Below are positions 6,699 to 29,485 of a DNA stretch of 45,310 bases, piece after piece. Source of the DNA: a virus (lineage: Duplodnaviria; Caudoviricetes). The stretch's first letter is position 1. Each line of letters opens with the position of its first letter. The position numbers and the translations under genes are program-made. Where the stretch lies: the IMG/VR virus record IMGVR_UViG_3300014613_000009, positions 1-45,310 of that record. One strand, given 5' to 3'. The notes beneath the pieces were generated by a model, which saw nothing but the letters and a program-made list of their open reading frames with translations, was not told the DNA's origin and did no database searches.

Positions 6699-6700
6699 TA

Positions 6701-7224: not shown

Positions 7225-7236
7225 TTTATTCCCTTT

Positions 7237-7392
7237 CTAATAACCATCGAGCTTGTCGTCTATTTGTTCATATGTTTTATCGAGTTTCTTGCGCAAAGTA
7301 TATGCTCTTTTTTCTATTTCCGCAATATCGCCCAAAAGTTTCAATACCTCACGGACGGCATCCTGCAACTGTAGTTTTTCTTCTTCGGTCAT
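7237..7392 (-). CDS. Small coiled-coil protein (51 aa, not in ORF track)
   Basis: MTEEEKLQLQDAVREVLKLL...; GAGG RBS; ATGA overlap. Confidence 0.6.
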   Translation of the reverse strand: MTEEEKLQLQDAVREVLKLLGDIAEIEKRAYTLRKKLDKTYEQIDDKLDGY

Positions 7393-7724
7393 TTTTTAAC
7401 CTCTTCAAGAATTTTCTGTTGAATGGCCATCATATCATCCATTCTTTTGTTTGCGACTTTCTGCTCAATTTTAATGTCCGAAGTGTCCTGTTTGACGTAA
7501 TCAATGTCCTTTTGAATGCCTATAATGGCTTTTTCATTGATTTCGGCCTTCGTAGCGGCAGAATCCGCTTTTGTGCTATTGTTGTCAACCCTGGCGTAAA
7601 GTATTCCGATAGTAACCAAAATCGTTCCTATGGTGGTAATTATTCTCCAGTTCCTATTGAACCAATTTAGTCCGTTTTCATCTTTTCGCATTTTCATCGT
7701 CCTATAATAATTATACCATATCAA
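7389..7724 (-). CDS. Single-TM coiled-coil protein, holin-like or lysis-associated
   Basis: TM segment IITTIGTILVTIGILY followed by heptads. Confidence 0.6.
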   Translation of the reverse strand: MIWYNYYRTMKMRKDENGLNWFNRNWRIITTIGTILVTIGILYARVDNNSTKADSAATKAEINEKAIIGIQKDIDYVKQDTSDIKIEQKVANKRMDDMMAIQQKILEEVKK

Positions 7725-7730: not shown

Positions 7731-9029
7731 TTACCAGTCTTCGTTTACAAAAATAACCTGTCCCGCCGCCGTTGGCGCAGGGGTCTCGTAACTATAGATT
7801 AGAATCATACAACTTGTGATATAGGCATTAGCGTCAGTAGAGGCAACTTTGTAGCCCCAATATCTGTCACCATCATCAAGCGTCAAGGCAACAGAGCGAA
7901 CCCTGTCTTTGCTTGCGCTATTCACATTTATTTCGCTGTCCGGCTCTGCCGCTCCGCCCGTGCCCGAATCGTTCGTGCTGTCGTCCTTCAAAAAGAATAT
8001 GTCATCGTCATCCGCACAAAGTCCCGTGAAGTCGTGATAGACAGCAGGATTGCTGTAATTTGAAGTGGTCATTAGGACACGACTGCGTATGCCTGTATTA
8101 GCCGCAGCAGCAGTTGCACCGGAATAAGTGGATGCCCGCCAGTAGATTTCTGTTTTGGTCAGAGTGGTAAGAGTAACGTATAAATCCGCTTTGTATAATT
8201 TAACATTTCCAGCCGGATTATCTATTTTTATATACACTTCAAATTCATCGCCATCATCAAAATTCGTGGCATTATTGGCAAAGTCGGTATTGGCAATAGT
8301 CGGAGTGGATGTTAGGCCAAGAATTATTACTTCAGAAGCAGCTATTTGAGCATTATCCGTTACATTCCATAAAGTGGCATAAAAGTCATCGCTTCCCCCC
8401 TCGCCCACTACAGTCAATGACCATCCGCTTATCGTAGCAAAATTACTTGCCGTTTTTAAGAATCTTGTGTAATATCCGGTTGTTCCCTGCGTATAAGAAT
8501 CGCTGCTGTGAGCATCCACGTATGCCTCATCATCAGAATTGGAATAGCCGGATGTACCAAGCATAGGTATCTGTATTCTTGTCTTGGTCGCATTAACCTG
8601 AACAACAATTATCCTTGCCGTATAAACACGGACAGTCCCGCTTCCGGTTGGTATGTCCGGCGTTCTCACGGCGTAAATATGATTGGCCGCATCAGGCGAC
8701 CAGGATGCAGAGCGTAACCGAGTTTCATTGGTCGTGCTGTTGGGAATCGTTATTGATGTCTTAACGTCAGAGTCAGTCACATCATACAAATCAACTGCAT
8801 AAGTGCCGGAAGCATTGGAGTTATAGCCCACTATCTCGAAGTAGTAAGTAGCCCCGTCGTAGTTAGATGGGTCTAAATATGTCTGGCTGCGAAGGAAGAT
8901 AATAGGGCCGGATGTGGTGCTGCCGAGTCCCCTGTCCACCATTTCAATCGGGACTTCGAGGTTCATTGCCCCGAAACTTATGGAGCAAAATAAAAATAAA
9001 ATCAAAAAAGTTCTAATTCTTGTTTGCAC
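7731..9029 (-). CDS. Signal-peptide-bearing beta-rich virion appendage-like protein
   Basis: Leader MQTRIRTFLILFLFCSISFGA; Thr/Ser/Asp-rich; tail-fibre position. Confidence 0.7.
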   Translation of the reverse strand: MQTRIRTFLILFLFCSISFGAMNLEVPIEMVDRGLGSTTSGPIIFLRSQTYLDPSNYDGATYYFEIVGYNSNASGTYAVDLYDVTDSDVKTSITIPNSTTNETRLRSASWSPDAANHIYAVRTPDIPTGSGTVRVYTARIIVVQVNATKTRIQIPMLGTSGYSNSDDEAYVDAHSSDSYTQGTTGYYTRFLKTASNFATISGWSLTVVGEGGSDDFYATLWNVTDNAQIAASEVIILGLTSTPTIANTDFANNATNFDDGDEFEVYIKIDNPAGNVKLYKADLYVTLTTLTKTEIYWRASTYSGATAAAANTGIRSRVLMTTSNYSNPAVYHDFTGLCADDDDIFFLKDDSTNDSGTGGAAEPDSEINVNSASKDRVRSVALTLDDGDRYWGYKVASTDANAYITSCMILIYSYETPAPTAAGQVIFVNEDW

Positions 9030-10128
9030 TGAGATACCCCACTATACATATTTTGATTTGGTCAAGGTCGTCCGCCGAAGCGTCAAAGATTATGCCGTGA
9101 TTGTCCTCTATTGTTGCGTGGTCTATGTCATTAGCACCTATTATTGCATAATCCAAACCCGTCCCGTCCGTTGACATAGTTATCGCCTCGATTGTCGTCA
9201 GGGCGGTATTGTCGGTCAAATCGGTGATTTCCTTAAGCGTGAAATCGCCATCATCTCCGGCTTGGTCATCGCAGCGGGCATAAATCCTCTCTATAACATA
9301 AGTGAATCCCGTATGATTCTCCCAGACTATGAAAGTATCGGTATCGGCAAGCTGGTCTGGATTGGAAATCGCTATATTTAATATCTTCAATTTTTGGCCG
9401 ATGACAACCTGATTGGTATCATCGAATCCTCGCAAGGCATAATCATTCGAGTCCCAGCTTATCTCGCCTGCCGCGTCCACGTCTGGGTCTGTGCCGTTGG
9501 GTATTTCAAGTGATGTTGCACTGCCCAAATCATAAGCGCCGGTCGAAGCCGTCCATCCTTCCGTTACAAAATCATAGACATTATCACAAGTTGGAATGTT
9601 CACATCGTCCCCGTTTGTAACCAGCGCAATAAGAACGTCCAGCGTATCGTCCGTCAGGGATAAATGAGTTCCCACGGCCAGATTCGTATTATCGGATATA
9701 TCAACCGTAGTTAAAAAACTTTGCGCATCTATGTAATCATAGACGTTATCGCAGGTCGGAACATTAACGTCATCGCCGTTTTCCACATCACCTATCAGGA
9801 CATCGAAAGTATCGTCCGTCAAAGATACGTGCGTTCCGGCAGTCAGATTGGTATAATCGCTTATATCCACCGCATCTGCGTTCCAGGCGCCCGTAGCAAT
9901 AGTGCCGAGAATGGTTATATTTGCCGAGCCAGTCCACGTATTATTAAGGGTAACCCACGTGACTTTCCTGTCAACAGGCGTATTATTGGGGTCAAGCACG
10001 ACGTAAAACATAGCATTGACATCAACCGTAGCCGTTTGTGTCTTATCAAGCAGGTTCGGGTCGGAATCCGCTTTTGCCGGAATGCCATAAAAACAAATTA
10101 TCGTAAATATCAAGATTAACTTTTTCAT
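9013..10128 (-). CDS. Signal-peptide-bearing fibre-like protein with 55-aa tandem repeat
   Basis: Leader MKKLILIFTIICFYGIPAKA; fibre-like motifs TGSANITILGTIATGAWNA and EIPNGTDPDVDAAGEI. Confidence 0.75.
   Translation of the reverse strand: MKKLILIFTIICFYGIPAKADSDPNLLDKTQTATVDVNAMFYVVLDPNNTPVDRKVTWVTLNNTWTGSANITILGTIATGAWNADAVDISDYTNLTAGTHVSLTDDTFDVLIGDVENGDDVNVPTCDNVYDYIDAQSFLTTVDISDNTNLAVGTHLSLTDDTLDVLIALVTNGDDVNIPTCDNVYDFVTEGWTASTGAYDLGSATSLEIPNGTDPDVDAAGEISWDSNDYALRGFDDTNQVVIGQKLKILNIAISNPDQLADTDTFIVWENHTGFTYVIERIYARCDDQAGDDGDFTLKEITDLTDNTALTTIEAITMSTDGTGLDYAIIGANDIDHATIEDNHGIIFDASADDLDQIKICIVGYLSANKN
9565..9870 (-). repeat. Two-copy 165-nt (55-aa) intragenic repeat
   Basis: VDISD.TNL..GTH.SLTDDT.DVLI..V.NGDDVN.PTCDNVYD occurs twice. 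Confidence 0.9.
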
Positions 10129-10140
10129 AAGTATTGTCCT

Positions 10141-11592
10141 TTATTGTTCTACAGTGGCAAATTCAGCCCCATCAACAAAATAAAAATCAGTTCCATCCAC
10201 AAAATTAAAATAAATTATCCATTCCGTCAATGGTATTATTTTCCACCTGTTATCTTGAACTGCCAAATATAAATTGTATTCATCGTAAGCCACATCGCCA
10301 GCGCTGCAAGCGCCTGTCGGACTGGTCGGCACGTCAGACCAGCTAAAACCGCCTCCGCCTGCTCCGTTTGCGGCGGCAGTCAGTCTGCCATCAGCATCAA
10401 CGGTTATATCGGCGTTCGTATATGCCCCTGCCACTACGGTAGTCGAGGCAAGCTCCGTAGCTCCGACTCCGCCTGTGGCTATTGTAACATTTCCGTTTGT
10501 AGCGTCAAAATTCGTATTATCAAAAGAGGCAAGCCCCTTTGTGGCACCATCATCATCGGCGTTTCGTATTTCAAAGGCGCCGTATCCTGTATTGACATCG
10601 GCGCAAATTAAAGAACCGCCGAAAAAAGATGGGGCAGAGCCGGACTGGTAAATACAATAATCCGGCGTTTCATCATATTCATTGAGATAAAGAATATATG
10701 AACTATCGCCTATCGTCGGGGTATTGATTAGTCGCAAGTCTATATAAACCCCATAGGCGTTCCTTCCGATGCTTGCTGCATTTATCGACGATGTTATCAA
10801 AGCGCCGGTAATATCGTAAGTTACAGTGGTTGTATTGTCTGTTGCGTAAGCACCTGTTGTAAGACCTTGAATATGCGAACTGTCTGCTCCATCCATTATA
10901 GTAGTTGAGCCAAGTATTCCATACATAGTATCCGTGAGATGGGAATTTGCGCCGGACGTGAAATTGGTAAATCTGAGGCCGTAACTGTTGTCGGCAGTTC
11001 CCTGTTCGATGTAAATATCCGCCGTAACGCCGCATATCCTGTCGATAATTCCGCCCGATTGATTGAAATTGCCAGCAATATCCAATCCGTAAAAAACGTC
11101 TGTTGCATCGGTAGCTCCCGAAGTTTTGTCAAGGTCTATATACAGTCCCTGATGTCCTGTTGTCCCTGCGGGGTCGGCGTTTATGAAGGCCGAATAAGTG
11201 CCGGACGTATTTGTAAGAGACAATTTTCCTCCGGTATACGTTCCGCTGCCTATATCAACGCTGTCGTTGGCGGTTTTCGGCGACAAGGTAGTGCCGGAAC
11301 GAGACCATAAATTACAAGGGTCTGTTTCCGGGGTTTCCGTTATCCAGCCAAGATTACCAGAACCATCCGTTTTTAACAACTGTCCACTTGTGCCGTCAGC
11401 ATAAGGCAAGACCCATATCTGATTGGCAATCAAAGCAGGGGCTTCAAATCCGACATAATTGCTGTCGCCAACATCGTAAAACCGCAATTCTCCACCGCTT
11501 TTTATCCAAAGCTCTGATACCTTCTGGGCTATCAAGCCCATACAAAGCAGGCAAACCAAAACCAAAAAGATTATTAAGAGCTTTCGCCCCAT
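10141..11592 (-). CDS. Tail fibre-like protein with N-terminal signal/TM segment
   Basis: Leader MGRKLLIIFLVLVCLLCMG; fibre motifs LPYADGTSGQLLKTDGSGNLGW and AGAYTNADITVDADGRLTAAANG. Confidence 0.75.
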   Translation of the reverse strand: MGRKLLIIFLVLVCLLCMGLIAQKVSELWIKSGGELRFYDVGDSNYVGFEAPALIANQIWVLPYADGTSGQLLKTDGSGNLGWITETPETDPCNLWSRSGTTLSPKTANDSVDIGSGTYTGGKLSLTNTSGTYSAFINADPAGTTGHQGLYIDLDKTSGATDATDVFYGLDIAGNFNQSGGIIDRICGVTADIYIEQGTADNSYGLRFTNFTSGANSHLTDTMYGILGSTTIMDGADSSHIQGLTTGAYATDNTTTVTYDITGALITSSINAASIGRNAYGVYIDLRLINTPTIGDSSYILYLNEYDETPDYCIYQSGSAPSFFGGSLICADVNTGYGAFEIRNADDDGATKGLASFDNTNFDATNGNVTIATGGVGATELASTTVVAGAYTNADITVDADGRLTAAANGAGGGGFSWSDVPTSPTGACSAGDVAYDEYNLYLAVQDNRWKIIPLTEWIIYFNFVDGTDFYFVDGAEFATVEQ

Positions 11593-11783
11593 TCTGCACC
11601 TGTTTCCCAAGAACCGGAAATCCTTATTTCAATTTTTATATTTCCTTCCGTTATATTAAATCTCACCGAGCCGTCAGTGTCGGCGTCGCCGCGCAAATAT
11701 ATATACTGTCCCGTGAAGGCAACAGAGCCGTCACGCTTGATATACTCCTGATAATCCGGGTCTTTAATCGGCCATATCTGCAC
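11574..11783 (-). CDS. Small tail-fibre-associated protein
   Basis: Fibre-like motif YIKRDGSVAFTG; GAGG RBS; no signal peptide. Confidence 0.6.
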   Translation of the reverse strand: MQIWPIKDPDYQEYIKRDGSVAFTGQYIYLRGDADTDGSVRFNITEGNIKIEIRISGSWETGAEWGESS

Positions 11784-11786
11784 ATC

Positions 11787-14700
11787 TTACCTCAACTGAA
11801 TCATTATGTCCCAGGGCAATTCACTGTCTTTTAATTCATTCATAATAACTAACTCTTTTGCTGTTCTGGGCATACCCTTAATGGCTTTTATTATACTTTG
11901 CTTCTGGATTTCCTGATATTGTTCTGCCAGAACTTTCTTTTCTTCATCCGTTTTCGCCCGTTCCAATCGCACTCTATACCATTTTTGCAAAGTTGATGGG
12001 TCAAGAAGTCGATTGCTTATACGTTCAGGTATTGATTTTTTAACAAAAGATGTTTTTATTTTTTTATCTACTTTTTTATCAAATCTTGAATCGAATTTCG
12101 ACCACATATTATATATCTTGACGAACTGCTTTTCGGCCTGTTCTGCTTTGATAAATTCCAATGGGCTTAATCCGCTTGCGACAAAATCATCCTCCATATT
12201 ACCAAGATATTTCATTTCCTTGCTTTCAATCAGGTGCATTTTGCCAACCGTCTGCCAGTTTATGCTACGCTTTTTGCCATCAACTTCAAGAACAATTTCG
12301 CCCTTTGGATTCATATCATAAATTCCAATAGCACCTTTCCCCGCTAAAGTATCGATGTATTTCTTCAATGCTATATCAACAGGAAGCCCCTTTTCGTAAG
12401 TTTGTATAGTTGCTCCCAAAAAAGGAATGGAGCATTTAACAAAATATAAAGTCCTATCAATTAGCTTTTCGTCCCAGTCCATTGTCATAACATCACGCCT
12501 GTAAATCGGCGCTTTGTCATAAGGGTCTTTGCGATTTTCGCTGGCAAGCCCCTGATAAAAACGAATCCAGGGATTCATTAAATATGCCACGCCTTCAACT
12601 TCTTTTATGCCCCAAGTTTTTAAGGTTTCTATCGCAGCTTCTTTTGGCGTCATTTCACCGTGAATAACCCGATTACTATAATCAGTAACTATAGAAAAAA
12701 TCTTCGTTCCGATAAGAACGTCCTGCGGAAGCTGCAATGAAAGAACTCTCGTAGTTCCATCTGGATTTCTGCCGAGAACAAAATGGGTTCTGTTTCTAAC
12801 GTAATCCGGTAATTTGGATTCCATTTCTTGAATATCATCTCTGCGATTATTGTATAACGTAGAAGCTATTGGCAATGCCATAAAAGCCAATAACGCTTTC
12901 AGTGGATGCTTGCCGAACCATTTCCATATTCTTGCAGAAGTCTTAAAGTAAAATGTCCCGAAAGGAGCAACTCCTCCGCTTACATACCTTCTAAACGGTT
13001 TTGATACGGCAGCATAATCAGTTAAAATCTCACGACTAATTTTGCCAAGAGCGTCTCCAGTCGATAATCCTTTGGTATTTATCCAGTCGTGTGCTGCAAC
13101 CATTGCTTCGCCTTCGCCTGCCTGTTGCGCCCTTAACATACTCGAAGCATACGCCACACGCATTATAGATTCTCTAAAATCGGACAATTTATATGATTTA
13201 TTGAGCAGCCAATATAAGGGGTTTCTGGATTTTCTGGCAAGAATCAATTCCGTTGTAGTAAAAGTCTGCTTTATATCGTGCTTTTTTATGAAATCATCAA
13301 GCTGTTCGGCATATTCAAAATCCAGTTTGCCTGTTAGATATTTAAGAGAAGTTTCTATTTCCTTCAAAAATGATAACGGGTCAGGATGCTGAATCAAAGC
13401 TATCCAAGTATCACCTACAAAGTTATTGATATTGAAACTCGGAAAATGTGAAAGTATAGCCATCGACTTCCATAAACTCGTTGCCCGATTGACAAGATAT
13501 ATTCCCCGACTTCCTCGTTGCGAAAAATCCCTGAATAGATTATACATCTCCTCCGGTATAAGAGCGACATTTTTATAATTTCCAAGAGCTGCTTCTCCGT
13601 TTTCAGTCAGATAAATCGCCCTCGAAAATGGTATATCAGGCGTATAGGCACGGTATCTTTTACCTCCGATGTCGTAAATTCTACCTGGACGTGGAGTTCT
13701 TATCCTTCCGCTTTCGGTTGTCCCAAATAGATTGGCACGTTCCGCTTTTGATAGATAAGGTTTCCCTGCCTGTTTTGCTAATTTCTTTTTGCCAAGCGCC
13801 TTTTTAATATCATATTTCGCAACCTGTGTCTCGACAAAATCCTCGACAAGATTATGGTATTCCATCTCCAGCAGAGAATCCAAAAGGGCTTCTTTGTCCT
13901 GCCTGTATTCTTTAGTTGTGCCAACCGCTTTTTTGGTATAACCCCTAAATGGTCTTTTAAGTTGCGTTGGTATATTGGCATAAGGCGCCCATTCAGGCGT
14001 GTAATCCTCTACGTAATGTCGGACGTGGTCTTCGATAAGCTGGTCTTTTCGCAAAACTCCACGCTCAACAAGTTTGTCGGTATAAGTCTGTTTTGTCTGT
14101 GACCATCTTTCGGCAGCTTCAATAGCTTTATCTGACGCCTTGCCTATTATATTATCAAGGATTTTTTGAGCTTCCTCGACCGATATTTCGGGATTGCCAA
14201 TTTCAAGTTTGGCTCTTGATAATTGGTCTTTGGCAAAAATTATCTCCACCGATTCTTCTACAACTTTTTCATCAAGGTCTTCCCAAATAGCTTTCTGAGC
14301 CGTTTCATAAACATTTGTTTTTGCTTTGGTCAATGCTCCTATCATATCCGTGCGAACGGCGTTTCTAAATTCCGGCGGTGCTTTCGGATAAAATCTCAAC
14401 TGGTCGAAATCCTCTTTAATATTCTTGCCTGCTTCGGCAATTTTCTCGCCCGCTTTTTTTGCCGCCTCCTGCACGCTTTCAGGTATCGGAGTTATAACTT
14501 TACCTGAAGGCATTTTGGGATTCTTAATATGCTCAATGTAAACTCCGGTCGGTTCGGCAGGAGAAGTTTGTTGTTTATACCACCACGCCTTAAAAGAACT
14601 ACGTGCTATTTTAGCAGTATCAAATTCACCTGTAAATTTATTACCAGTCGCAGGAAATTCAGGCGATTCTCCACCTTGATATTTAACTTCATATTTGCCG

Positions 14701-17845: not shown

Positions 17846-18389
17846 ACCCCTTTAAAAGTGTTGTTCCCGCATTTAAATATCCGCCAGTCCTGTATGCTCC
17901 TGCTTTCTGTCCGTATATTTTCGCCTGTATCCTGTCGAGGACTGCTTGAGACCTATATCTCTGTGCGCTTTCTGCACCTTCGTAACCTATCATAAGATTC
18001 TTAAGCTCCAGTTCCGACGCCTGCTTCGCCTGAACCAGTAACGGCGTTCCTTCAGTCGATACCACACCTGCCGCACCCATACCGGCACGCATAGTTCCCA
18101 TTACCCTTGCGCCTTCCTCGGCCTGTCGCCCCTGCTCGAATAAAGACCTCATCCTTTCCTGCTCGGCCTCTCGCTCGGCCAGTTTAGCATTGTATTCCAT
18201 CATTGCCTGCGCCGATTCGGCCTGAGCAGCGGCGGCGGAGGCCTGCTGAAGCTGACCAACAACAGTTAATATCGTCCCAAAACCTTTCAAAGTCAATAAT
18301 GGCGCTATTATCGCTCCCATCGTTACTCCATAAATTTCACATACAAAAATGCGTCTTTGCCATCGTCCGTAAATTTTTTCATTACACAC
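17838..18389 (-). CDS. Internal virion protein (gp14-equivalent; start probably near 18320)
   Basis: Ala/Gln-rich; AGMGAAGV...EGTPL motif; synteny. Confidence 0.7.
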   Translation of the reverse strand: MCNEKIYGRWQRRIFVCEIYGVTMGAIIAPLLTLKGFGTILTVVGQLQQASAAAAQAESAQAMMEYNAKLAEREAEQERMRSLFEQGRQAEEGARVMGTMRAGMGAAGVVSTEGTPLLVQAKQASELELKNLMIGYEGAESAQRYRSQAVLDRIQAKIYGQKAGAYRTGGYLNAGTTLLKGFA

Positions 18390-18739
18390 TCGATTTTGAA
18401 ACCGAGATGCTCAATCATCCTTATCGCTTCGGGAAAGTCCAGTCTCACATACGCCTGCAATCTCTTTAATTTGTGGATTTTTATAAGCTCATCCAGCCAT
18501 TCCTTGATTATCCTGTAACCCGATTTCATCATAGTCCTGCCGTATTCGCTTATATCTACCCATACCCAAGCTGTAACGGAGTTTATAAGCTGTATTCCGC
18601 CGACGCCGAGAACAACCCCATCCTGCTCTACGGCATAAGCGTAGGCAATCTGCGAAGGCATTTTATCGAATATGCCTTTTGACGCCGAATGAACAGCCAT
18701 AAACTCAATGTCCGATTCCGTCATTTCCCGAAACTTCAT
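18323..18739 (-). CDS. GNAT-fold protein (T7 gp13-equivalent position)
   Basis: GVGG...AWVW...RLQAYV...AIRMIEHLGFKIE pattern. Confidence 0.75.
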   Translation of the reverse strand: MKFREMTESDIEFMAVHSASKGIFDKMPSQIAYAYAVEQDGVVLGVGGIQLINSVTAWVWVDISEYGRTMMKSGYRIIKEWLDELIKIHKLKRLQAYVRLDFPEAIRMIEHLGFKIECVMKKFTDDGKDAFLYVKFME

Positions 18740-19161
18740 TACGCCTCCGATTTCACAAATACGGATATTAAAAAGGCATCCGTTACGCTCGCGGCATCTA
18801 TCGTCATCCCGTTGGCAGACGTTAAATCAGGATTCACGGGAATATAAAATCCTTCGCCTTCGTTGATTTCCAAATCAGCCGTTGTCTCATCAAAAGTAGT
18901 CGTTCCAGCCGTATTGAGCATAATGTAAATCGTGCCCGATGCACACTCTATATAAACTCCGTAAATAGCTCCCACGTCATATTGCGGAAACAAAGTCGAT
19001 AACTGCATCGCAGTTGTCCCCGCCGTTGAATGTATGATATACAAAGGCGAGCCGCTATGCTCCACAGGAACGGTCATCGTCACATCTTCGGTGTCCCAGT
19101 TAACATCGTCTCCAAGCCCCGTAACGCTCCATTTCGTCCTTAATTTTAATTCTCCACTCAT
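18739..19161 (-). CDS. Putative virion structural protein
   Basis: Acidic, beta-rich ORF within the tail operon. Confidence 0.65.
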   Translation of the reverse strand: MSGELKLRTKWSVTGLGDDVNWDTEDVTMTVPVEHSGSPLYIIHSTAGTTAMQLSTLFPQYDVGAIYGVYIECASGTIYIMLNTAGTTTFDETTADLEINEGEGFYIPVNPDLTSANGMTIDAASVTDAFLISVFVKSEA

Positions 19162-19163
19162 TG

Positions 19164-20921
19164 TTATCTCCCGCTTTTAGTCATTCTTGCCACTATTGCC
19201 CGAATCGTGCAGGGCAGCGACCCTGAACCCGTAATCAACATCTTATCTCTTACATCGAACCCGGCGTCGAAAGTGACAATTTTATCGCCTGTAAATAATT
19301 CACCAGCCGTCCAGCCAGCATCGTATAGATTATTGGCATCTTTGCCGTAATAAGCGCCGGCCGTTCTCAAAAAACTGATTACCAATTCGTGTATCTTTTT
19401 AATTGAGCCGTGAGTCGTGCCACCCTGAACGTCCACGTCAATCCTCATCGGCTCAAGTTTGTAAGTATATGATAGTCCGACTGCCGCTTTTGAAACAAGC
19501 GTTTCTACGCCGTCTAACTTGGTCGTTATCTGGCCTGAAGCAACGGTCGCATCGTCAAATTCCACACCATCGCCAAAAACCTTGACTGTCTCGCCTTCGA
19601 GATGATTAAGTTCCGTAATAGTGGAAGTTCCATCGCTGTCATAAACTATACCCGCATCAGCGAAATAGGCGTCCTCAATGTCTGCGAAATTCCGAGACAT
19701 CATTCTTTCTATATGAGTAACGTCCGCCTCATCTATAAGCCTTTGCGCCGACAGCCAGACCTTGTCCTCTTTTACCGAAGGCACAACGCATACGCTCAAA
19801 ACCGTTGCGTCCCCGCCAAGAGGATGTTTCGACCACGCCACAACGTTCTGCTCTCTCTCATAAGTCATTGAAATCAGCGAGCCATCCGAAAGAGTAAGCC
19901 ATAAAATAGAATCGGGATTTCTCTGGTGCGCTATGGACGTTATGCCGGACAGGGTTATATGTTCCGCCAGAGATGTCAGGTCTGGAGAAACATATTTGCC
20001 TTCGGGATATTCCCTGTAAACCAATTCCCTTACTTTTCTGCCCACGTAATCGATGAATAAAATGACATCGTTTACCCTTATCGGCTGAACCATACTGCTG
20101 CCGTAATTCGACTGCTGCTTTATGGAGACGTTGGTCGGCGTTATGGGCGTGTCCAGCTTGTTCGATTTTATGAGCCATTCGTCGCCGGAAGTTCCCACCA
20201 GAAGTGATTCAATCGCCTCTACCCATCGAATGTTGTTCATCGTGGGGACGACTATCCAGAAGGCGTCGTCATCCTCAACCCCCTCGCTGAAATTGTCGTA
20301 ATCGCCGGTCTTGCTGAACCAGACTATCTGCTGCTTTCGCTGGCGCAAAGCGACATACTCAACACCGCCTTCAACTTCTTCGTCCGGTGTTGTGCCTTCG
20401 GAATCCTCGCCTTCCGGCTCAATATCAGGCCAGCTTCCATCTTCTGGTATCATTTCTTCTTCTCCGTTTCCGCTGCCCTCTGCATCGATTGTAATTGGAT
20501 ATATTTCAGAACTTTTTATTTCCCAATAATCAGCAGGCCAGGGAATATGATTCAAGTATTGCCAAAAAAGAATATAAGAGCCTGCGTTTGCATCTTCAGG
20601 AACTTTAACTGTAACCGTAACCCATCCTTCTTCGATTCCGGCGCCCCATTCTATCCCGTCGTCAGTTGACGAGATAACATTGCTCGCTCCTATCGCTTCG
20701 GCAAGAGGCGTAACATCAGGATATTCAGCTATCCAACTATCTATGTATTCCTGAGTAAATACGCATTCCTCAACAAATCCTCCTTCTGTTACGCTTAAAG
20801 TGAGAGCGGCTTTTGTTGTTGTATTATCTGAATTTCTATCAGAGTAAAAATAAAATTCAAAAGTATAAGTTCCACCTTTCTTCCAGACACCATCAAGTTC
20901 TACATTACGAAAATAGCTCAT
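19164..20921 (-). CDS. Tail tubular protein B (nozzle), C-terminal half with an extra N-terminal domain
   Basis: QIVWFSKTGDYDNF, LLVGTSGDEW, DLTSLAEHIT, TYEREQNVVAWSKH; first ~190 aa are unrelated. Confidence 0.85.
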   Translation of the reverse strand: MSYFRNVELDGVWKKGGTYTFEFYFYSDRNSDNTTTKAALTLSVTEGGFVEECVFTQEYIDSWIAEYPDVTPLAEAIGASNVISSTDDGIEWGAGIEEGWVTVTVKVPEDANAGSYILFWQYLNHIPWPADYWEIKSSEIYPITIDAEGSGNGEEEMIPEDGSWPDIEPEGEDSEGTTPDEEVEGGVEYVALRQRKQQIVWFSKTGDYDNFSEGVEDDDAFWIVVPTMNNIRWVEAIESLLVGTSGDEWLIKSNKLDTPITPTNVSIKQQSNYGSSMVQPIRVNDVILFIDYVGRKVRELVYREYPEGKYVSPDLTSLAEHITLSGITSIAHQRNPDSILWLTLSDGSLISMTYEREQNVVAWSKHPLGGDATVLSVCVVPSVKEDKVWLSAQRLIDEADVTHIERMMSRNFADIEDAYFADAGIVYDSDGTSTITELNHLEGETVKVFGDGVEFDDATVASGQITTKLDGVETLVSKAAVGLSYTYKLEPMRIDVDVQGGTTHGSIKKIHELVISFLRTAGAYYGKDANNLYDAGWTAGELFTGDKIVTFDAGFDVRDKMLITGSGSLPCTIRAIVARMTKSGR

Positions 20922-22271
20922 TTATTCTTCCGCATCTAAAATCTGGGTCGGCACTTGAACCGTCCCGCCGTAAATGCACCTGTCCTCGAAAAACGTAACG
21001 CTCGACGGGTAGCCCCGCAATGGCGACCACGCCCCTTCCGCCCATCTTTTCGTGGCGTCAGTGGATTCAAGCTCGACTACGACCTCTATGGCCGCCTCCG
21101 TAGCACTGTTGACATCGGTAACTTTCACTATTCCTTTCGTAACGGCTTCATCGACCGTAATGTCCGCCTTTATTTTGCCCGACTCTCTTTCGCTTACCAC
21201 TGCCCGATACTGGACGTTGTCTGCCTCTTCCTCGCCCGAATATTGAACGTTATACGTATAAGTCCTGTAATTTTCCCAGCCCGCACTATTTTCATTTCTC
21301 TGTAAGGCGACCGTCGCCTTCCACGTTCCCTGTATGACAAAGTGAAAAGTCCCTTTCACGTCTATCGCATCGCAGACCGTCCCGTTATCGCTGATGCTTC
21401 CCTTTGATATCGTGTCCTCTCTCGGATGGGTAAGCTCGAAAATTGACCCGATATGCTCATCCACAAAATAATCATTGCTGCAAGTCAATGTTCCCGTTTC
21501 ACCCGCAGCCGTTTTACTGCTTGCCATTGTAGCCGTATCAGTAACGTCAGGGTCTAACAGGTCGTTTCTTGTAAGGAACGGGCCTTTTTTGAACTCTATA
21601 GCATCAAGCGAAAAAGATGTCGTCGTAGTCCTCGTCAGCTTTCTCGGAGCGTAAGAGGGATGAATTATCCACATAGTATCGGCTAATTGTTTAATATGGA
21701 GTTGAAACAAATGTGCCGTAAGATAGGGCGTCTCAACAAGAACTTCCAAATCGCTTCCGTCAACGAGAACCTCATCCTCATAGAAAAACCGCATATACTT
21801 ATTTCCCAGTTCTATCTTGTAGGAAATTGTCGATGAGTAAATGAAACTTATTATTCTCACCGTCTCAGCTTCATTCAGGGACACCAAAGGATAGTTCGCT
21901 CCGCAATCCCTGCTGTTTGTCCCATCTGAAATTATCTCGCCATCGGTAAAATCACCGTCCAGATTGGTTATAACGTATTCGGTAGAGGACGTAACTTCGA
22001 TTACCCGACAGGTAGTCCCACTTTCGGCGCCCGTAAGGGTCGCCCCGAAAGAAAAGGCAGCCGGAGCAGGCGAGGAGTCCAGCGTCAAAGTCCATAATTG
22101 AGAATTGTATATATGCTTTGTGCCGGGCCTGCGCTCAACGCCGCCGTAAATTCTTGGTAAAAAATTTTCAAGCTGTCGGCAGCCGGACGAATACTTTTCG
22201 ACATCGCTGCGGCAGTCTATCTGCGGAGTAAAAACCCCACCTGTAAAATTGACAAGTCCAACATTACTCAT
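20922..22271 (-). CDS. Tail tubular protein B (nozzle), N-terminal half
   Basis: NFTGG, ENFLPRIYGGVERRPGT, QLADTMWIIHPSYAPRKL, WAEGAWS..RGYPSSVTFFEDR. Confidence 0.85.
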   Translation of the reverse strand: MSNVGLVNFTGGVFTPQIDCRSDVEKYSSGCRQLENFLPRIYGGVERRPGTKHIYNSQLWTLTLDSSPAPAAFSFGATLTGAESGTTCRVIEVTSSTEYVITNLDGDFTDGEIISDGTNSRDCGANYPLVSLNEAETVRIISFIYSSTISYKIELGNKYMRFFYEDEVLVDGSDLEVLVETPYLTAHLFQLHIKQLADTMWIIHPSYAPRKLTRTTTTSFSLDAIEFKKGPFLTRNDLLDPDVTDTATMASSKTAAGETGTLTCSNDYFVDEHIGSIFELTHPREDTISKGSISDNGTVCDAIDVKGTFHFVIQGTWKATVALQRNENSAGWENYRTYTYNVQYSGEEEADNVQYRAVVSERESGKIKADITVDEAVTKGIVKVTDVNSATEAAIEVVVELESTDATKRWAEGAWSPLRGYPSSVTFFEDRCIYGGTVQVPTQILDAEE

Positions 22272-22275
22272 ATAA

Positions 22276-22626
22276 TCAGGTCTTTACTATCGTTTCGTCT
22301 ATTTTCGTTATTCTGTCGTCAAAAACATAAACTATTTTTTCTGTTATCATTTCGAGTATTTCCGTCAAATCGGCCTCTATGGTTACGAGGTCGCCGCTTA
22401 TACTGACTTCGGGAGAGTATTCTCCTGCCCCGACTACGGTAATGCTTTCCTTGACAATTACCCAGTCGCCGGCTTCTATATCGCCGTTATCAGCCACGTA
22501 GTAGCCGGTAGAGCCGATTTCCGGCAGCGACGTTCCGGCAGCCGTGCGCACCGAACCATCCGGCTCGTAAGCGCCGTAAGTGAGCGTCCTTCCGCTTGCC
22601 CATCCAAAATTTATTTCATTTGACAT
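22276..22626 (-). CDS. Putative virion structural protein
   Basis: Coupled ORF between tubular A and tubular B. Confidence 0.65.
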   Translation of the reverse strand: MSNEINFGWASGRTLTYGAYEPDGSVRTAAGTSLPEIGSTGYYVADNGDIEAGDWVIVKESITVVGAGEYSPEVSISGDLVTIEADLTEILEMITEKIVYVFDDRITKIDETIVKT

Positions 22627-23261
22627 TATGTATCCTGCGGATAATTATTGGTCGCTATTCCAAGAGGGGTAAACCTTGCCAAATTCCACGAACTGTAGCC
22701 GGAAGTGTTCATTTCCTGCCTGTCCACAGCCCTGACCTGCGGCATAAGAATATTCAACTCTTTCATTATTCCCTCTTTCAGGGAAGTCGCTTCCGTCCCC
22801 GCCACAGGATGAACCAGCTTCAGGGCAATCTGTAAAACAAGAACTTCCTTGAATAGCGGGTCGAACTCGTCGGGGTCGGTGACTTTCCTTATGTATTTCA
22901 GGTCGAAAGTCTCGTCGTTGCACATCAGCTTGTTCCCTTCTATGGCGCATCTTTTTGACGGCTCATCCATCTGGAAATTGTCGTTGTCCCTGTATAAAGG
23001 CCTCGTCCTTAAATAGTCATCCGGCAGGGAAAACTGATAGTCCCACTCGAAATCAGGGGTATTAGTTTCAGCCGACAGGGTTTTTCTCGCCCTTGCAAAA
23101 GGCCAGTCGTGGCTTCTCAAAAGAGCGTCTCTCGTCGGCTCGTAATGCGTATTGCATTTAAGAGCCACTATGGAAGTCTGCACGGCATAAGTAAAATTGG
23201 CAGCGCCTATCCTGTCGCAGGCCTGATTGCAAACAGTGACTTCTTTCGCAGTAAGAGACAT
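22626..23261 (-). CDS. Tail tubular protein A (adaptor, T7 gp11-like)
   Basis: CNQA..IGA, RDALLRSHDWPFA, YQFSLPDDYLR, FDPLFKEVL. Confidence 0.88.
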   Translation of the reverse strand: MSLTAKEVTVCNQACDRIGAANFTYAVQTSIVALKCNTHYEPTRDALLRSHDWPFARARKTLSAETNTPDFEWDYQFSLPDDYLRTRPLYRDNDNFQMDEPSKRCAIEGNKLMCNDETFDLKYIRKVTDPDEFDPLFKEVLVLQIALKLVHPVAGTEATSLKEGIMKELNILMPQVRAVDRQEMNTSGYSSWNLARFTPLGIATNNYPQDT

Positions 23262-23265
23262 TTGA

Positions 23266-23637
23266 TTATCTCCCGTCTATATATAAAACCACGTCAACGG
23301 TCATTGTGGACGTGCCGGGGTCGCCGGACGGAGTGACCTTAATCGTGATATTGCCGTCAACGCACACCGCAAGCGGCAAGTCCGTGCTGGACAGCGTCCA
23401 GTATTGAAATACCGTCGTGGCGGCTTCGGCAATGCCCGCCTCGCTCCACAAAGTAATACTGTCCTCATCGACTATGGCCGCCGTAGCCGTCTTATTGCCC
23501 GTATTGTCGTTCACCGTGACGGAAATCTGTCTTATTATGCCATTGAGCCGAAGCGCAGAGGAAGACACTGCCGCAGTCCCGCCGTTGGGTATGGTCACTC
23601 TCGGACATTCGTATCTTGATATTCTTTCCTGTCTCAT
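23266..23637 (-). CDS. Small beta-sandwich virion protein
   Basis: Beta-rich; AAGGA RBS; position after the head genes. Confidence 0.65.
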   Translation of the reverse strand: MRQERISRYECPRVTIPNGGTAAVSSSALRLNGIIRQISVTVNDNTGNKTATAAIVDEDSITLWSEAGIAEAATTVFQYWTLSSTDLPLAVCVDGNITIKVTPSGDPGTSTMTVDVVLYIDGR

Positions 23638-23650
23638 ATAATAATTCCTT

Positions 23651-23679
23651 AAAAAGGGGGCGAGTCCAGCCCGCCCCCC
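23651..23679 (-). terminator. Rho-independent terminator
   Basis: GGGGGCG/CGCCCCC stem followed by TTTTT on the minus strand. Confidence 0.8.
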
Positions 23680-23804
23680 TACTTTAACCAGTTATCAAAG
23701 AACATTTCTAACTCATCGGGACTTCTTCTGACCAAAACGAAAGCTGCATAATCGCAAAAATTCACAATCCCATTTTCGTCAAAGTCAAAGCGTCCCCTTA
23801 CTAT
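23679..23804 (-). other. Cryptic dockerin-like coding segment in the -1 frame of the 764-aa ORF
   Basis: Translates IVRGRFDFDENGIVNFCDYAAFVLVRRSPDELEMFFDNWLK-stop, ending at the terminator. Confidence 0.7.
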
Positions 23805-26095
23805 AAAGTTCCTCCGCCTCCTGCCACAACGTTTCCGGTGGCGTCAAGCGGAGTCCACCAGACGTGGAATACAATCGTTCCATCGGCAATGTCCTGCACC
23901 TGACAGTCGAGGCCGACATCGAGACCTCCGACAACGACAAAATCAAAGAACCCGCTTGCCCCGATTGCCGTATGCTCCGTCGGGGACGTATCAAGCCAGA
24001 TTTCGCCTGAATCAAGATTCGTATTGTCTGCGCCTTCGGTGTTAATGACGGTGGCCGCAAGAATAACGTCCTCACTGGTTCCCGCCCACAAAGCTATCGT
24101 GCCTCCGTCAGTTCCCGTGCAGGTATCGGTGCATTCCATTAAAAGCCGGATTCGCACCGCTCCGGTAACAGTAAGAACCTCGTCCGTCTCGCCTGAGAGA
24201 CCCCAGTGTCCGGCTCCGGTAGTGCCGTCAAAATCAACCGTAACGGCAAGATAGTGAGAAGTGTCATAGGCCGGAAGCGCAGCGCCCTCGAATCTTCCAA
24301 GCATCTGGGTTATGCGCCCATTGCAGTCGTCAACGTGATTGTTCGTCCAGAGATTGGAATCCTCAACTACGGACACGGCGTAATCGTTGCACTCTCCGAT
24401 ATAAGTCTTTGTATAGCTGTTGCAATCTTCCAAATTGTTGTTAGACCACAGATTAGAATCCTCGGCTATAGACACCGCATAATCATTACACTCGCTAATG
24501 TAAGTCTTCGTGTAGCTGTTGCAGTCGCTCAAATTGTTGTTAGACCATAAGTTGGAATCAACTATTAAGGACACTGAATAGTCATTACACTCGCCTATGT
24601 AAGTCCTTGTATAGCTATTGCAGTCTTCCAGATTGTTGTTCGTCCAGAGATTCACATCGACCACTCTGTCAGAAATGGCTTCCAGAGAGTCGGTCGTATT
24701 ATTATACGAAGTCTTTATCGGAGAGGCCGATTTGGACATCAAAAACGCCATTATCGACTCGGTGGCGACTGAATCGGGATACGTCAAAGACGCACTCCTG
24801 TCATCGGCGGCAATCAGTTTATCGAGAGAATCGGCCTCAATAGCGTCAGTTGCTTCGCCCTCTATCGCCGCAAGAGCGGTGGCGTTCCATGATGTTGTCC
24901 CTCCGCTCTGAGGAACCGTTGCAACGGCGTCTGCAATAGCTTGCAATGAATCGGTGGTATTATCGAAGGTCGATGCCGTTGCCGTAGTGCCAGAAACCAT
25001 AATAAAGGCGAAAAGCGAGTCCGGCTCTACATTGTCAGGATAGTTGTTTGTGGCAGCAGTCGCCTTTTTAAGCGCCCATCCAGGCCCTGCTTCCGCATCC
25101 TCGGCTGCGCCGTAATCCGCCTCGATATTCATGGCGTTCTCCATACTTCCGGGGTCAACAATCGTGCCTGGAGTATCGGATGCGCAGTAATTGGAATACA
25201 AAAGGCCTGTAGCCGTTGTGGAAAACTCTATGGCGTGGATTCCAGTATGGATATTCGTAATGACATTGTAGGCAATATAAGAATGCGTATCAATGTCGTC
25301 ACTGAATATCGCAGCGTCGGCATAATCGCCAAGCACGTAGTTATTAACAACTCTGATATTGTCAATCACTCCTACCGTCATATCCAGCCACGTATTGGCA
25401 CCATCAGATGTCGAGGAAACAGAGATTGCGATGCAGTTTGAAATAATCAAATCGTCTGCGGCGGCATCGGGTTGAATTGCATCTAGGAACTCATCGGTCG
25501 ATGCAGCCTCACCATCCATAAACTCGCAGTTGTCTATAATTGAACCGTCGGCGTCCGCCTCGATTTCTATGGCATGGACGACCTGGTTATAACCCGGCTG
25601 AAACGTAAGATTGTAAAGTTTCACGTTCGCAGCGCCTATTACCAGTTCCGCATCGGCATCATCGTAGTCAAATCTCGGCCTGTTGGAGCCGGTTCCAAGC
25701 CCTATAATCGTCACGCCGATAACGTCAATGTCGGCGCTGTCAGTCCCGGTCCAGTTCTCATTATGACCGGCTGCGACGTAAATAACGTCTCCATTATTGT
25801 CGCTGCACAGGGCAACGGCGGCGTCAAGGGTCGTCATGGCGTCCGTCAAGCTAATGCCGGTTCCAAGTCCCGTAGCGCCACTATCGACGTAAAAAGAGTT
25901 TCCCGTCCCCGCCCCTTCTCCGGTAACCTTGGAATGGAGAAGGTCGAGCGAGGCCTTGACGCTGTCGTCCTGAGCGTTGCCGCCATCGCCGGAAAATCCG
26001 CCTATCATATCATTGGTCTGCTTTATCCTTGTCGCGTAGCACGGCAAAACGAAAAGCAGAACCAGAACAATCATAAATATCTTTTTGGTATTCAT
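23801..26095 (-). CDS. Signal-peptide-bearing head-fibre/spike-like protein (beta-helix, hendecad stalk, C-terminal beta domain)
   Basis: Leader MNTKKIFMIVLVLLFVLPCYA; pectin-lyase-like start FYVDSG...TTLDAAV...GDVIYVAAGH. Confidence 0.75.
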   Translation of the reverse strand: MNTKKIFMIVLVLLFVLPCYATRIKQTNDMIGGFSGDGGNAQDDSVKASLDLLHSKVTGEGAGTGNSFYVDSGATGLGTGISLTDAMTTLDAAVALCSDNNGDVIYVAAGHNENWTGTDSADIDVIGVTIIGLGTGSNRPRFDYDDADAELVIGAANVKLYNLTFQPGYNQVVHAIEIEADADGSIIDNCEFMDGEAASTDEFLDAIQPDAAADDLIISNCIAISVSSTSDGANTWLDMTVGVIDNIRVVNNYVLGDYADAAIFSDDIDTHSYIAYNVITNIHTGIHAIEFSTTATGLLYSNYCASDTPGTIVDPGSMENAMNIEADYGAAEDAEAGPGWALKKATAATNNYPDNVEPDSLFAFIMVSGTTATASTFDNTTDSLQAIADAVATVPQSGGTTSWNATALAAIEGEATDAIEADSLDKLIAADDRSASLTYPDSVATESIMAFLMSKSASPIKTSYNNTTDSLEAISDRVVDVNLWTNNNLEDCNSYTRTYIGECNDYSVSLIVDSNLWSNNNLSDCNSYTKTYISECNDYAVSIAEDSNLWSNNNLEDCNSYTKTYIGECNDYAVSVVEDSNLWTNNHVDDCNGRITQMLGRFEGAALPAYDTSHYLAVTVDFDGTTGAGHWGLSGETDEVLTVTGAVRIRLLMECTDTCTGTDGGTIALWAGTSEDVILAATVINTEGADNTNLDSGEIWLDTSPTEHTAIGASGFFDFVVVGGLDVGLDCQVQDIADGTIVFHVWWTPLDATGNVVAGGGGTL
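24320..24658 (-). repeat. 99-nt (33 aa = 3 x 11) tandem repeat, about 3.4 copies
   Basis: Units of DSNLWSNNNLE-DCNSYTKTYIG-ECNDYAVSxxx. Confidence 0.92.
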
Positions 26096-26113
26096 TTTTA
26101 GTTCTCCTTTCGT

Positions 26114-26902: not shown

Positions 26903-26977
26903 CTTAATTTCCTTTCAAAAAAGCTGTGCATTGCACAGTGCCCTTAACCGGCATACAAATTAGCCGCCGGGCTGTTA

Positions 26978-28985: not shown

Positions 28986-28999
28986 TTTCTTTCCTTTCG

Positions 29000-29481: not shown

Positions 29482-29485
29482 AATT

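Follow-up and report, generated by a model that had tools for sequence, protein, structure and literature searches.

The window, i.e. the whole stretch of 45,310 nucleotides that was analyzed, holds the complete 45.2-kb genome of an uncultured podophage from groundwater (Table 1). Its genes follow the order terminase–portal–scaffold–capsid–adaptor–nozzle–ejection proteins–fibres. The portal family (PF12236), the adaptor (phrog_394), the nozzle (phrog_376, PDB 8CK1) and the internal virion proteins after the nozzle (phrog_418, phrog_308) are those of T7-type, HTVC010P-like podophages. The last two families were matched by two small genes of the ejection block, while its two large genes were placed by position only. 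The gene following the capsid gene had neither a family nor a structure match. On indirect evidence, the host order is probably Sedimentisphaerales (planctomycetes). The intergenic element upstream of the capsid gene had matches in 12 of 401 genomes, the search covering host-order genomes only, and the best match was 28 nt at 100%. Rfam gave no match, and no CRISPR spacer was seen when positions 14001–34000 of the window were compared with the 401 genomes. The RNA run X9 contributed few contigs and a small share, which is not evidence of expression.

Table 1. Features of the window discussed in the text.
Feature	Positions	Strand	Remarks
Orphan with signal peptide	2709–3380	+	Outside virion operon
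Exported beta-propeller (TIGR04275) with host-style half-dockerin tail	3437–4501	+	Tail at 4424–4492; outside virion operon
Membrane-anchored protein	5893–6465	+	Outside virion operon
Lysis-like cassette	6531–7691	-	No recognisable endolysin
Lipoprotein	6701–7015	-	Lysis-like cassette; leader
Small TM gene	7012–7224	-	Lysis-like cassette
Single-TM coiled-coil gene	7389–7691	-	Lysis-like cassette
Signal-peptide gene, probable virion accessory	7731–9029	-	Best Atlas matches are viral clusters at 0.90; no motif excess
Fibre-like gene with signal peptide	9013–10128	-	Resembles viral clusters in Atlas, all <0.9 (lead only)
Fibre-like gene with signal peptide	10141–11592	-	One D-P-C
Internal virion (ejection) proteins and acetyltransferase-like gene	11787–18739	-	Leaderless
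Tail nozzle, two genes	19164–22271 (20922–22271, 19164–20921)	-	phrog_376; neither with leader
Head-tail adaptor (tail tubular A)	22626–23261	-	phrog_394; no leader
GC hairpin and U-tract, terminator-like	23650–23680	-	Directly after mini-ORF; z = -3.0
Half-dockerin-like ORF, 41 aa	23679–23804	-	Leaderless; -1 frame, overlaps spike stop
Spike with signal peptide	23801–26095	-	Two genes downstream of capsid gene
Repeat stalk of spike	24296–24661	-	11 copies of D/E-x-N, spaced exactly 11 residues apart
Leaderless core, whole block	26114–33341	-	Pfam and PHROGs
Post-capsid gene	26114–26902	-	'Cement' is a guess from position; leaderless
Capsid	26978–27940	-	Leaderless
Intergenic element upstream of capsid gene	27952–28006	.	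Matches short-repeat intergenic element of host-order genomes
Scaffold-like gene	28092–28985	-	Leaderless
Portal	29623–31251	-	Head-tail connector family PF12236; leaderless
Large terminase	31713–33341	-	Leaderless

Leaders were called with our own tripartite-leader heuristic and inspection, not with SignalP. Eight of the 62 window ORFs were flagged: the spike and the three genes at 7731–11592 within the virion operon, three genes (at 2534, 2709 and 3437) outside it, and the lipoprotein of the lysis-like cassette. By heuristic and inspection the leaders have the features of Sec (SPase I) signals, with a basic n-region, a hydrophobic h-region and small residues at -3/-1. The initial annotation had restricted signal peptides to appendage genes; this holds within the virion operon but not genome-wide. 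Leaders were found in 29 of 30 spike homologues versus none of the 249 homologues of nine core genes, and all 30 adaptor homologues were leaderless. The gene at 10141 has short segments in common with 286 proteins, some of them with PF03906 or PF13884, which is a lead to a fibre identity. The orphan at 2709 had no homologue among 70 candidates.

The spike consists of a leader (aa 1–21), a right-handed beta-helix head, helical repeats, the repeat stalk and a C-terminal domain. The model of aa 22–345 reached a pLDDT of 82.8, while the single-sequence fold reached 34. The Foldseek matches of the head were beta-helices of lyases and tailspikes, the best viral match having a TM score of 0.72, and the modelled head is accordingly described as a tailspike-like beta-helix. 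A virion-appendage fold was recovered in this way for the spike only, and for the genes at 10141, 9013 and 7731 there are leads. In L022, a spike homologue that lacks a leader, the alignment starts at spike residue 22, the predicted cleavage site. A reading of the spike as a broken gene was rejected because the stop sits at a C-terminus common to L023, L027, G259 and L225.

The two nozzle halves matched the tail nozzle 8CK1_A with E-values of 1e-22 and 5e-40, and the nozzle is 34–38% identical to the tail tubular B of Pelagibacter phage. Among relatives, 18 of the 36 distinct nozzle N-termini carry a leader of the order charged–hydrophobic–small, fused directly before the conserved start. Also the sole nozzle gene of the sister phages is itself leader-bearing, and so is that of a third, distant lineage (G087:C18, 35–38% identical), which has a leader-bearing tailspike/fibre in addition. 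A quick capsid tree of 29 rows rejected a single origin of the nozzle-leader phages (p-AU 0.001), so either the tail modules have been swapped or the leaders change repeatedly. Paired cysteines do not account for nozzle export, as the nozzles with a leader have 5–10 Cys and those without 3–13. At the level of compared sequences, four things are evident: the pattern of predicted leaders, its conservation, the fusion of a leader to the nozzle N-terminus of sister phages, and some lineages from which leaders are cleanly missing.

Since the spike and fibre genes, and in sister phages the nozzle gene, carry leaders and the core genes do not, the outer parts are likely to be exported and added late. 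The spike and the three fibre-like proteins would use the Sec pathway of the host and be attached to the already DNA-filled head at a late stage, probably at the time when the holin-like protein opens the inner membrane. We give this reading a probability of about 0.6. Export of outer virion parts appears well supported by the comparative evidence, while we infer that leaders are cleaved, that the parts fold in the periplasm and enter virions, and when this happens. That heads of the sister clade would have to stay sealed before they receive a nozzle was counted against late joining. The initial annotation had proposed two-compartment maturation with host-glycosylated appendages; the leader pattern favors its export half, but the glycosylation half is a guess, with no PglB found and a weak motif in the fibre genes.

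The exported proteins might instead be envelope factors that exclude superinfecting phages, mask receptors or remodel the wall as a substitute for an endolysin, the virion being built wholly in the cytoplasm. The three leader-bearing genes outside the virion operon, the resemblance of the spike head to polysaccharide lyases, the leaderless nozzle of the window and the lack of a recognised endolysin in a phage whose hosts have PBPs and FtsW/RodA would all fit such a role. It is nevertheless improbable, as the sole nozzle gene of the sister phages and also fibre and tailspike families are leader-bearing, and leaderless homologues occupy the same operon slot. Short hydrophobic N-termini can also serve as anchors, and the leaders could be uncleaved membrane anchors, or translation or folding leaders at the inner membrane face, with cytoplasmic assembly; the calls rest on a heuristic, and the cleavage is not from a trained predictor. 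However, an N-in topology would put the protein body outside, the last residues of the nozzle leaders are small and adjoin the homologous N-terminus exactly, and host exported-protein motifs accumulate in the leader-bearing and not in the leaderless nozzles. We consider anchoring quite improbable.

To our knowledge, tailed-phage assembly is regarded as wholly cytoplasmic. The window phage shares its gene order, and has a related nozzle, with HTVC010P-like, T7-type podophages (adaptor gp11, nozzle gp12, solved nozzle of PDB 8CK1), but the cultured relative HTVC010P has no leader on any of its 30 CDS and an annotated endolysin, whereas the window phage has leaders, a split nozzle and no recognised endolysin. 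M13 pIII/pVIII and the spikes of archaeal pleolipoviruses have a Sec leader, mature outside the cytoplasm and are added at the membrane, and the pleolipovirus spikes are glycosylated by a host enzyme. Those virions extrude or bud and their proteins are membrane-anchored, whereas here the parts are predicted to be soluble, lacking a TM anchor beyond the leader, and belong to a tailed icosahedral virion. If export is true, Caudoviricetes assembly would gain an export step through the secretion signal conserved on nozzle and fibres, and virion proteins could fold in the periplasm, be loaded with calcium and be modified by the host. More speculatively, tail parts could be hidden from cytoplasmic defence sensors.

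The motif D/E-x-N had been described as concentrated in the exported proteins. The listed motifs are present, and the ten exported or membrane proteins pooled hold 43 versus 28.8 expected from shuffles (p = 0.006), the cytoplasmic proteins having 52 versus 56.4. However, the four virion-block genes have only 24 versus 19.6 (p = 0.16), and the excess comes from one stalk, without which the count is 13 versus 16.3. Gene by gene, only 5893–6465 was significant (8 vs 2.6, p = 0.001), the genes at 9013 (8 vs 4.7, p = 0.07) and 3437 (p = 0.15) being not. The narrower D/E-P-N occurs five times versus 0.7 in the exported proteins without the stalk and 0 versus 2.1 in the cytoplasmic ones. In 65 leader-bearing proteins of relatives there was no motif excess (191 vs 204 expected). 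The proposed co-occurrence of signal peptides, motif, dockerin-like tails and a missing endolysin failed in the comparison, as the motif is not in excess in most relatives with signal peptides and only one close relative has a dockerin-like module.

The exported nozzles of some relatives differ from this, with D-x-N observed/expected counts of 12/4.2 in L012, 12/4.4 in L037 and 11/2.9 in G087. The G087 nozzle has none of its sites in common with L012 and two with L037, and its sites are often at columns with a conserved Asp where the other nozzles have no Asn; by alignment, two distant lineages appear to have gained D-x-N at different sites. In 23 of 25 relative nozzles, most of the leader-bearing ones among them, there was no enrichment. 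The pooled count of G087 was 29 versus 14.0 expected; treating as exported both a leader gene that had been missed and the spike body truncated at the contig end (itself 1 vs 6.3) lowers this to about 33 versus 21.

An unbiased tripeptide scan of 66 host exported proteins placed DPC, EPN and DPN at ranks 1, 2 and 3, although 21 of the 25 DPC came from one genome. D/E-P-N was in excess in the exported proteins of three MAGs (48 vs 11.4), two single-contig hold-out genomes (15 vs 6.0) and the G087 chromosome (7 vs 0.9), and no excess was seen in host cytoplasmic proteins. Beta-propeller homologues with the host tail had 59 versus 9.3, those without it 20 versus 12.8. In the hold-out genomes neither plain D-x-N (83 vs 77.6) nor DAN, DVN or DPC was enriched. 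D/E-P-N in control planctomycetes outside the order was 9 versus 4.9 (1.9-fold, p = 0.06, a small control), and the E. coli control comprised only three leader proteins. N-x-S/T in hosts was 0.94-fold. By these counts the motif, weak in the window phage's own fibre genes, nevertheless appears to be really host-linked in the order and in the exported nozzles of some relatives. The exported parts would meet a host periplasmic system that apparently recognises D/E-(P/A/V)-N and perhaps D-P-C; most lineages do not exploit it, while some may do so by gaining an Asn two residues after an Asp.

The sequon of PglB/AglB (STT3) is D/E-x-N-x-S/T with x not Pro. The motif here is like it in the acidic residue at -2 of the Asn and in being confined to exported proteins, and unlike it in lacking S/T at +2, favoring Pro at -1 and having Cys for Asn in one genome. 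The four virion genes had 0 full sequons versus 3.6 expected, and relatives had 25 versus 34.8. The suggested search for PglB/STT3 in candidate hosts came back negative: the PglB core was found in 0 of 41 phylum genomes and 0 of 5 single-contig order genomes, with sensitivity limited because the core model rang in just 2–3 of 14 controls. Weak partial matches to STT3 numbered 9 of 121; none of 12 proteins had a WWD motif, and the seven scanned match PMT/PMT_2 best among transferase families. A GT-C/TPR candidate, L094, with clear orthologues in G016 and G087, was not convincing because it has no clear orthologue in the motif-rich G040.

Export may also be real and D/E-x-N structural, reflecting Asx-Pro turns, calcium loops or coiled-coil core asparagines, with no host modification. 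We regard this as a serious candidate at somewhat below even odds. The stalks of L012 and L037 have other repeat units in which D-x-N is nevertheless kept, and both are compatible with an I/V-x-x-N pattern that we take to be a core-asparagine coiled-coil motif, in which the Asn would be buried. The negative PglB search, the rise of both D/E-P-N and the reversed motif in the control planctomycetes and the lack of enrichment in the window fibre genes point the same way. On the other side, DPD/EPD, DPS/DPT and reversed motifs were not enriched in host exported proteins with calcium loops masked, the same beta-propeller fold differs fourfold by host lineage, and the nozzles gained Asn at separate sites yet are not coiled coils.

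The short Asp-x-Asn motif is possibly the site of host sugar attachment, although glycosylation of the exported parts is a guess from motif counts; glycan transfer by a GT-C enzyme other than PglB is a tentative suggestion for the chemistry. The fullest form of the preferred reading would be a tailed phage family with a two-compartment virion, in which cytoplasmic heads take up the DNA and spikes, fibres and, in many members, the nozzle are exported, with these exported parts modified at D/E-x-N (and D-P-C) by an undescribed host glycosylation without Ser/Thr and without PglB, snapped on at lysis, and with lineages tuning the number of acceptor sites to the host. We consider this combination unlikely. 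The excess of D/E-P-N among the proteins that this planctomycete order exports suggests a protein-modification system not yet described, and could serve as a sequence marker when phages are assigned to hosts of the order. Mycobacteriophage virion proteins are modified by host-dependent methylation and, on a tail protein, HexNAc (PMC13445384, citing Freeman et al. 2023). The available part of that paper describes no export step, and the glycosyltransferase of Che8 is phage-encoded (PMC13445384); the window phage was said to encode none, and indeed none was recognised among its 61 ORFs with Pfam and PHROGs.

The most far-reaching proposal had host-glycosylated appendages on dockerin tails, shown on host cohesins and released without wall lysis. 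Both host-style tails, one direct and one cryptic, are real: the direct tail on the beta-propeller had E = 4e-7 with a custom HMM, and the relaxed pattern of the cryptic module had 0 matches in 300 shuffles. They are, however, half-domains, the cryptic copy is leaderless, and cohesin was found in just 1 of 41 order genomes. Neither window module matched PF00404/Dockerin_1, and the G259 copy, at 16.9 bits, remained under the Pfam cut-off of 22.9. At 12 of 21 inspected viral loci the module is in frame on a leader-bearing protein, and a -1 frameshift of the T7 gp10B type could make the cryptic module a spike tail; a canonical slippery heptamer stands before the G259 stop. Against this, the window, L222 and G259 modules have their own possible starts and the L224 module is attached to no gene; the traits do not co-occur across relatives, and the spanin/holin-like cassette points to ordinary lysis, its PHROG matches being weak (E about 0.002). 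No endolysin was recognised among the 61 window ORFs with Pfam and PHROGs, as had been noted initially, nor in 149 orphan ORFs of nine relatives, and a divergent enzyme is possible. A wall-less host as the reason was rejected, PBPs being present in 80 and FtsW/RodA in 81 of 81. A leader protein in G259 and G253, which we take to be lysozyme-like by impression, had no family match and no homologue in the window. Altogether, cohesin display of this kind is very improbable, and by sequence the modules look like borrowed host calcium-binding tags.

A type I dockerin-cohesin 'planctosome' is described for freshwater Phycisphaerae in the part of PMC6461901 available. It likewise has a calcium-loop-helix module on exported Phycisphaerae proteins (PMC6461901), whereas here the half-domain is single or degenerate, cohesins are nearly absent from the host order and one of the copies forms a mini-ORF without a leader. 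This cryptic module is most likely a 41-aa mini-gene, with a -1 frameshift extension of the spike as the alternative. In the window the slippery heptamer is absent, and a start codon with a strong Shine-Dalgarno (SD) site fits equally well: an ATA whose SD value of -10.3 kcal/mol places it in the top 5 of 602 ATA sites. Similar mini-ORFs occur in G259, L222 and L224, and two of the copies with their own possible starts have strong SD sites. An assembly error was rejected, as contigs of runs X4 and X5 span the region with no differences.

With a tripartite-leader heuristic, Sec-type signal-peptide-like N-termini (leaders) were flagged in 8 of the 62 ORFs of the window, four of them within the virion operon. 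The operon is of the T7 podophage type, lies on the minus strand and includes terminases, portal, a scaffold-like gene, capsid, adaptor, nozzle (tail tubular B-type protein) and internal virion proteins. The phage genome is complete and circular, with a terminal repeat of 123 nt and an IMG/VR completeness rating of 100%, and it is present in groundwater sequencing runs. The C-terminal half of the nozzle is 34-38% identical to the tail tubular B of Pelagibacter HTVC010P-like phages. In the group of the window (also L023, G259, L222 and L258) the nozzle is broken into two to four genes with inserted domains, and the locus L222 contains two additional-looking small ORFs, each corresponding to the first ~55 aa of the nozzle.

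Features of the window discussed in the text
Feature	Coordinates	Strand	Remarks
Two neighbouring small ORFs	76-508	+	near-duplicates, N- and C-termini alike
Direct half-dockerin tail	4424-4492	+	on 3437-4501
Lysis-like cassette	6531-7691	-	single-TM coiled coil, small TM protein, lipoprotein
Nozzle, two genes	20922-22271 and 19164-20921 (19164-22271)	-	both match PDB 8CK1_A 'Tail Nozzle'
Cryptic module	23679-23804	-	41-codon ORF in -1 frame; terminator-like hairpin next
Spike	23801-26095	-	
Gene without match to any family or structure	26114-26902		'cement' is a guess from position
First intergenic element	27952-28006		
Stretch upstream of capsid gene	28003-28074		kept in relatives; no Rfam match
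Second intergenic element	33551-33584		
DNA methylase	39571-40897	+	two overlapping ORFs, both PF01555; frameshift possible

Among the relatives compared (loci L004-L063, capsid identity 55-73%), 29 of the 30 distinct spike homologues carried a leader, and none of the 249 homologues of core genes did (capsid, post-capsid gene, portal, scaffold, terminase, adaptor, acetyltransferase-like and two ejection genes). HTVC010P had leaders on 0/30. For the sole leaderless spike homologue (L022), the alignment begins where cleavage is predicted, at residue 22 of the window protein. The strongest evidence came from the nozzle: a leader was fused directly ahead of the conserved start in 18 of 36 distinct N-termini, and the other 18 (12 close, 6 distant) began at that start. 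Cysteine pairing did not hold as an explanation for the nozzles, Cys counts being alike with a leader (5-10) and without one (3-13). Also a distant phage contig of 44.7 kb binned in a host-order genome (G087:C18) has leaders on both the nozzle and the tailspike or fibre. A single clade of nozzle-leader phages on the capsid tree was rejected (p-AU 0.001, quick tree), and the relatives L030 and L033-L036, with no leader on spike-slot or nozzle genes, are nested among leader-bearing phages. The head of the spike was modelled as a right-handed beta-helix (pLDDT 82.8) resembling tailspikes and lyases; the genes at 10141, 9013 and 7731 are linked to viral fibre proteins at lead level only. In several nozzles (L162, L048, L052, L046) the leader lacks ATG, GTG or TTG and has an apparent ATA, ATC or ATT start after a Shine-Dalgarno site; such leaders would be lost by standard gene callers. 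Lipoprotein-like leaders were also seen on a DNA methylase ORF, fused in frame (G253_34308, locus L147 of G253), and on a protein of similar size in G416 (L266:3142-4539).

The pattern and evolutionary behaviour of the leaders are documented at the sequence level. In T7-type assembly the nozzle and fibres come after packaging and adaptor binding, and the leader-bearing parts correspond to those that join last there. We suggest that the outer parts are exported and joined late (probability roughly 0.6): they would pass through Sec, lose their leaders and fold in the periplasm, and upon breaching of the inner membrane spikes and fibres would join heads built in the cytoplasm, as would the nozzle in the sister clade. 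In some lineages the host might also modify the exported parts at Asp/Glu-x-Asn (D/E-x-N). The integrated hypothesis of the initial annotation is partly supported, with strong sequence support for its export part. In titles and abstract openings, with few subscription papers, no signal peptides on tailed-phage virion proteins were described; supplements may list them. Passages of PMC5723332 give signal-peptide counts for Bacteroides phages without specifying the genes.

The host is probably a member of the Sedimentisphaerales, as judged from shared genes and elements. The exported beta-propeller 3437-4501 (TIGR04275) has a calcium-loop-helix C-terminal tail found also in 'Sedimentisphaerales bacterium' homologues; such tails occurred in 13 exported proteins of the five sampled genomes of the host order (that of the Planctomycetota genome G001) and in none of ten other Planctomycetota samples. 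Related phage contigs were binned in host-order genomes (capsid match in 4/251; also G087, G416 and G422), and the first intergenic element matched 12 of 401 genomes in a search within that order. The second is common to the chromosomes of 2/401. No CRISPR spacer against window 14001-34000 was seen in the 401 genomes.

The proposed concentration of D/E-x-N in exported proteins held in part, mainly as D/E-P-N in candidate hosts and as D-x-N in a few nozzles. In an unbiased ranking of all tripeptides in 66 exported proteins of candidate hosts, the top three were DPC, EPN and DPN, in that order, with DAN in seventh place and DVN in eighth. After masking of calcium loops, D/E-P-N exceeded expectation in exported proteins of three MAGs (48 vs 11.4), two hold-out genomes (15 vs 6.0) and the G087 chromosome (7 vs 0.9); 38 proteins of other planctomycetes gave 9 vs 4.9 (p=0.06). 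There was no excess in host cytoplasmic proteins or for the controls DPD/EPD and DPS/DPT. The excess of DAN, DVN, DPC and plain D-x-N was not replicated in the two hold-out genomes, and the trait is therefore variable within the order. Among propeller homologues of the same fold, D/E-P-N numbered 59 vs 9.3 in the 41 that bear the tail, compared with 20 vs 12.8 in the 78 that do not. One host genome (G016:C1, L102-L117) had 21 D-P-C vs 1.4 in exported proteins, in D-P-N-like contexts, with Cys as a possible acceptor. D-x-N was depleted in non-exported proteins of G087:C1 (4 vs 16.1) and G087:C18 (17 vs 30.2; ~13 vs 23 when two exported pieces are moved to the exported class), and in window cytoplasmic ORFs (16 vs 25.5).

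Use by the phages was patchy. The pooled D/E-x-N excess of the window (43 vs 28.8, p=0.006) came from 5893, 3437 and the spike stalk, which has 11 copies spaced by exactly 11 residues; minus the stalk, the virion genes had 13 vs 16.3. The complete PglB sequon occurred 0 times vs 3.6 in the virion genes. D/E-P-N in exported window proteins minus the stalk was 5 vs 0.7 (cytoplasmic 0 vs 2.1), the test not being blind as the motif had been named beforehand. Leader-bearing relatives mostly lacked an excess (191 vs 204). Among 25 relatives, nozzle D-x-N was enriched only in L012 (12 vs 4.2) and L037 (12 vs 4.4), sisters with 63% identity. The G087 nozzle (11 vs 2.9) has 0 and 2 sites in common with these, and its Asn often lies two residues past an Asp conserved in nozzles without the Asn, which looks like convergent gain. 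The L012 and L037 stalks carry D-x-N at 19/24 and 17/20 Asn in differing repeats; they fit the core-asparagine coiled-coil motif, however, and are weak evidence.

The PglB/STT3 oligosaccharyltransferase sought in candidate hosts did not appear: the PglB core was absent from 41 phylum and five host-order genomes, and STT3 gave weak partial matches in 9 of 121 genomes, all without WWD, the seven scanned being PMT-type GT-C proteins. The motif is tied to the host lineage by sequence, and some phage lineages probably use it, but glycosylation would be guesswork; host modification of any kind at D/E-x-N seems less likely than not. Glycosylation in Sedimentisphaerales was not described in titles and abstract openings, few subscription papers included. 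PMC6461901 presents the planctosome hypothesis, and PMC13445384 describes methylation that depends on the host as well as HexNAc on the tail protein of a mycobacteriophage.

Display of dockerin tails on host cohesins is unsupported because neither window module matched Pfam Dockerin_1 and cohesin was found in 1 of 41 host-order genomes; the full display model is very improbable. The cryptic module is identical in two other runs, and similar leaderless short ORFs occur in three other viral records (G259, L222, L224). It could be a -1 frameshift tail of the spike, and the G259 ORF has a canonical slippery heptamer as well as an ATG start. The spike stop codon sits at the natural C-terminus of the family, the Shine-Dalgarno of the window ATA is among the five strongest of 602 ATA positions, and that of the L222 TTG start is equally strong. 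A mini-gene is the favoured reading, the frameshift tail less so. Of 21 inspected viral loci, 12 have the module as an in-frame part of a protein flagged for a leader, and by eye three more are of this kind; the rest were three unrelated EF-hand-like proteins and three mini-ORFs. Proteins combining a leader with a half-dockerin are encoded by unrelated viral contigs (L228, L232, L234, L237, L240, L242, L243, L244, L245), in several apparently within a structural-gene block.

The reported lack of a recognisable endolysin was confirmed in 61 window ORFs, and none was found in nine relatives, five rated complete, for which 149 orphan ORFs out of 177 candidates (110-420 aa) were covered. The relatives that lack leaders have incomplete genomes. 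Wall-free release was not supported: candidate hosts carry peptidoglycan genes, the lysis-like cassette has weak spanin and holin matches, and the simplest reading is a lysin present in unrecognised form. G259 (L165:9724-10104) and G253 (L147:9353-9769) have a small protein, lysozyme-like by eye and without family match, with a leader in G259, which is a candidate secreted lysin.
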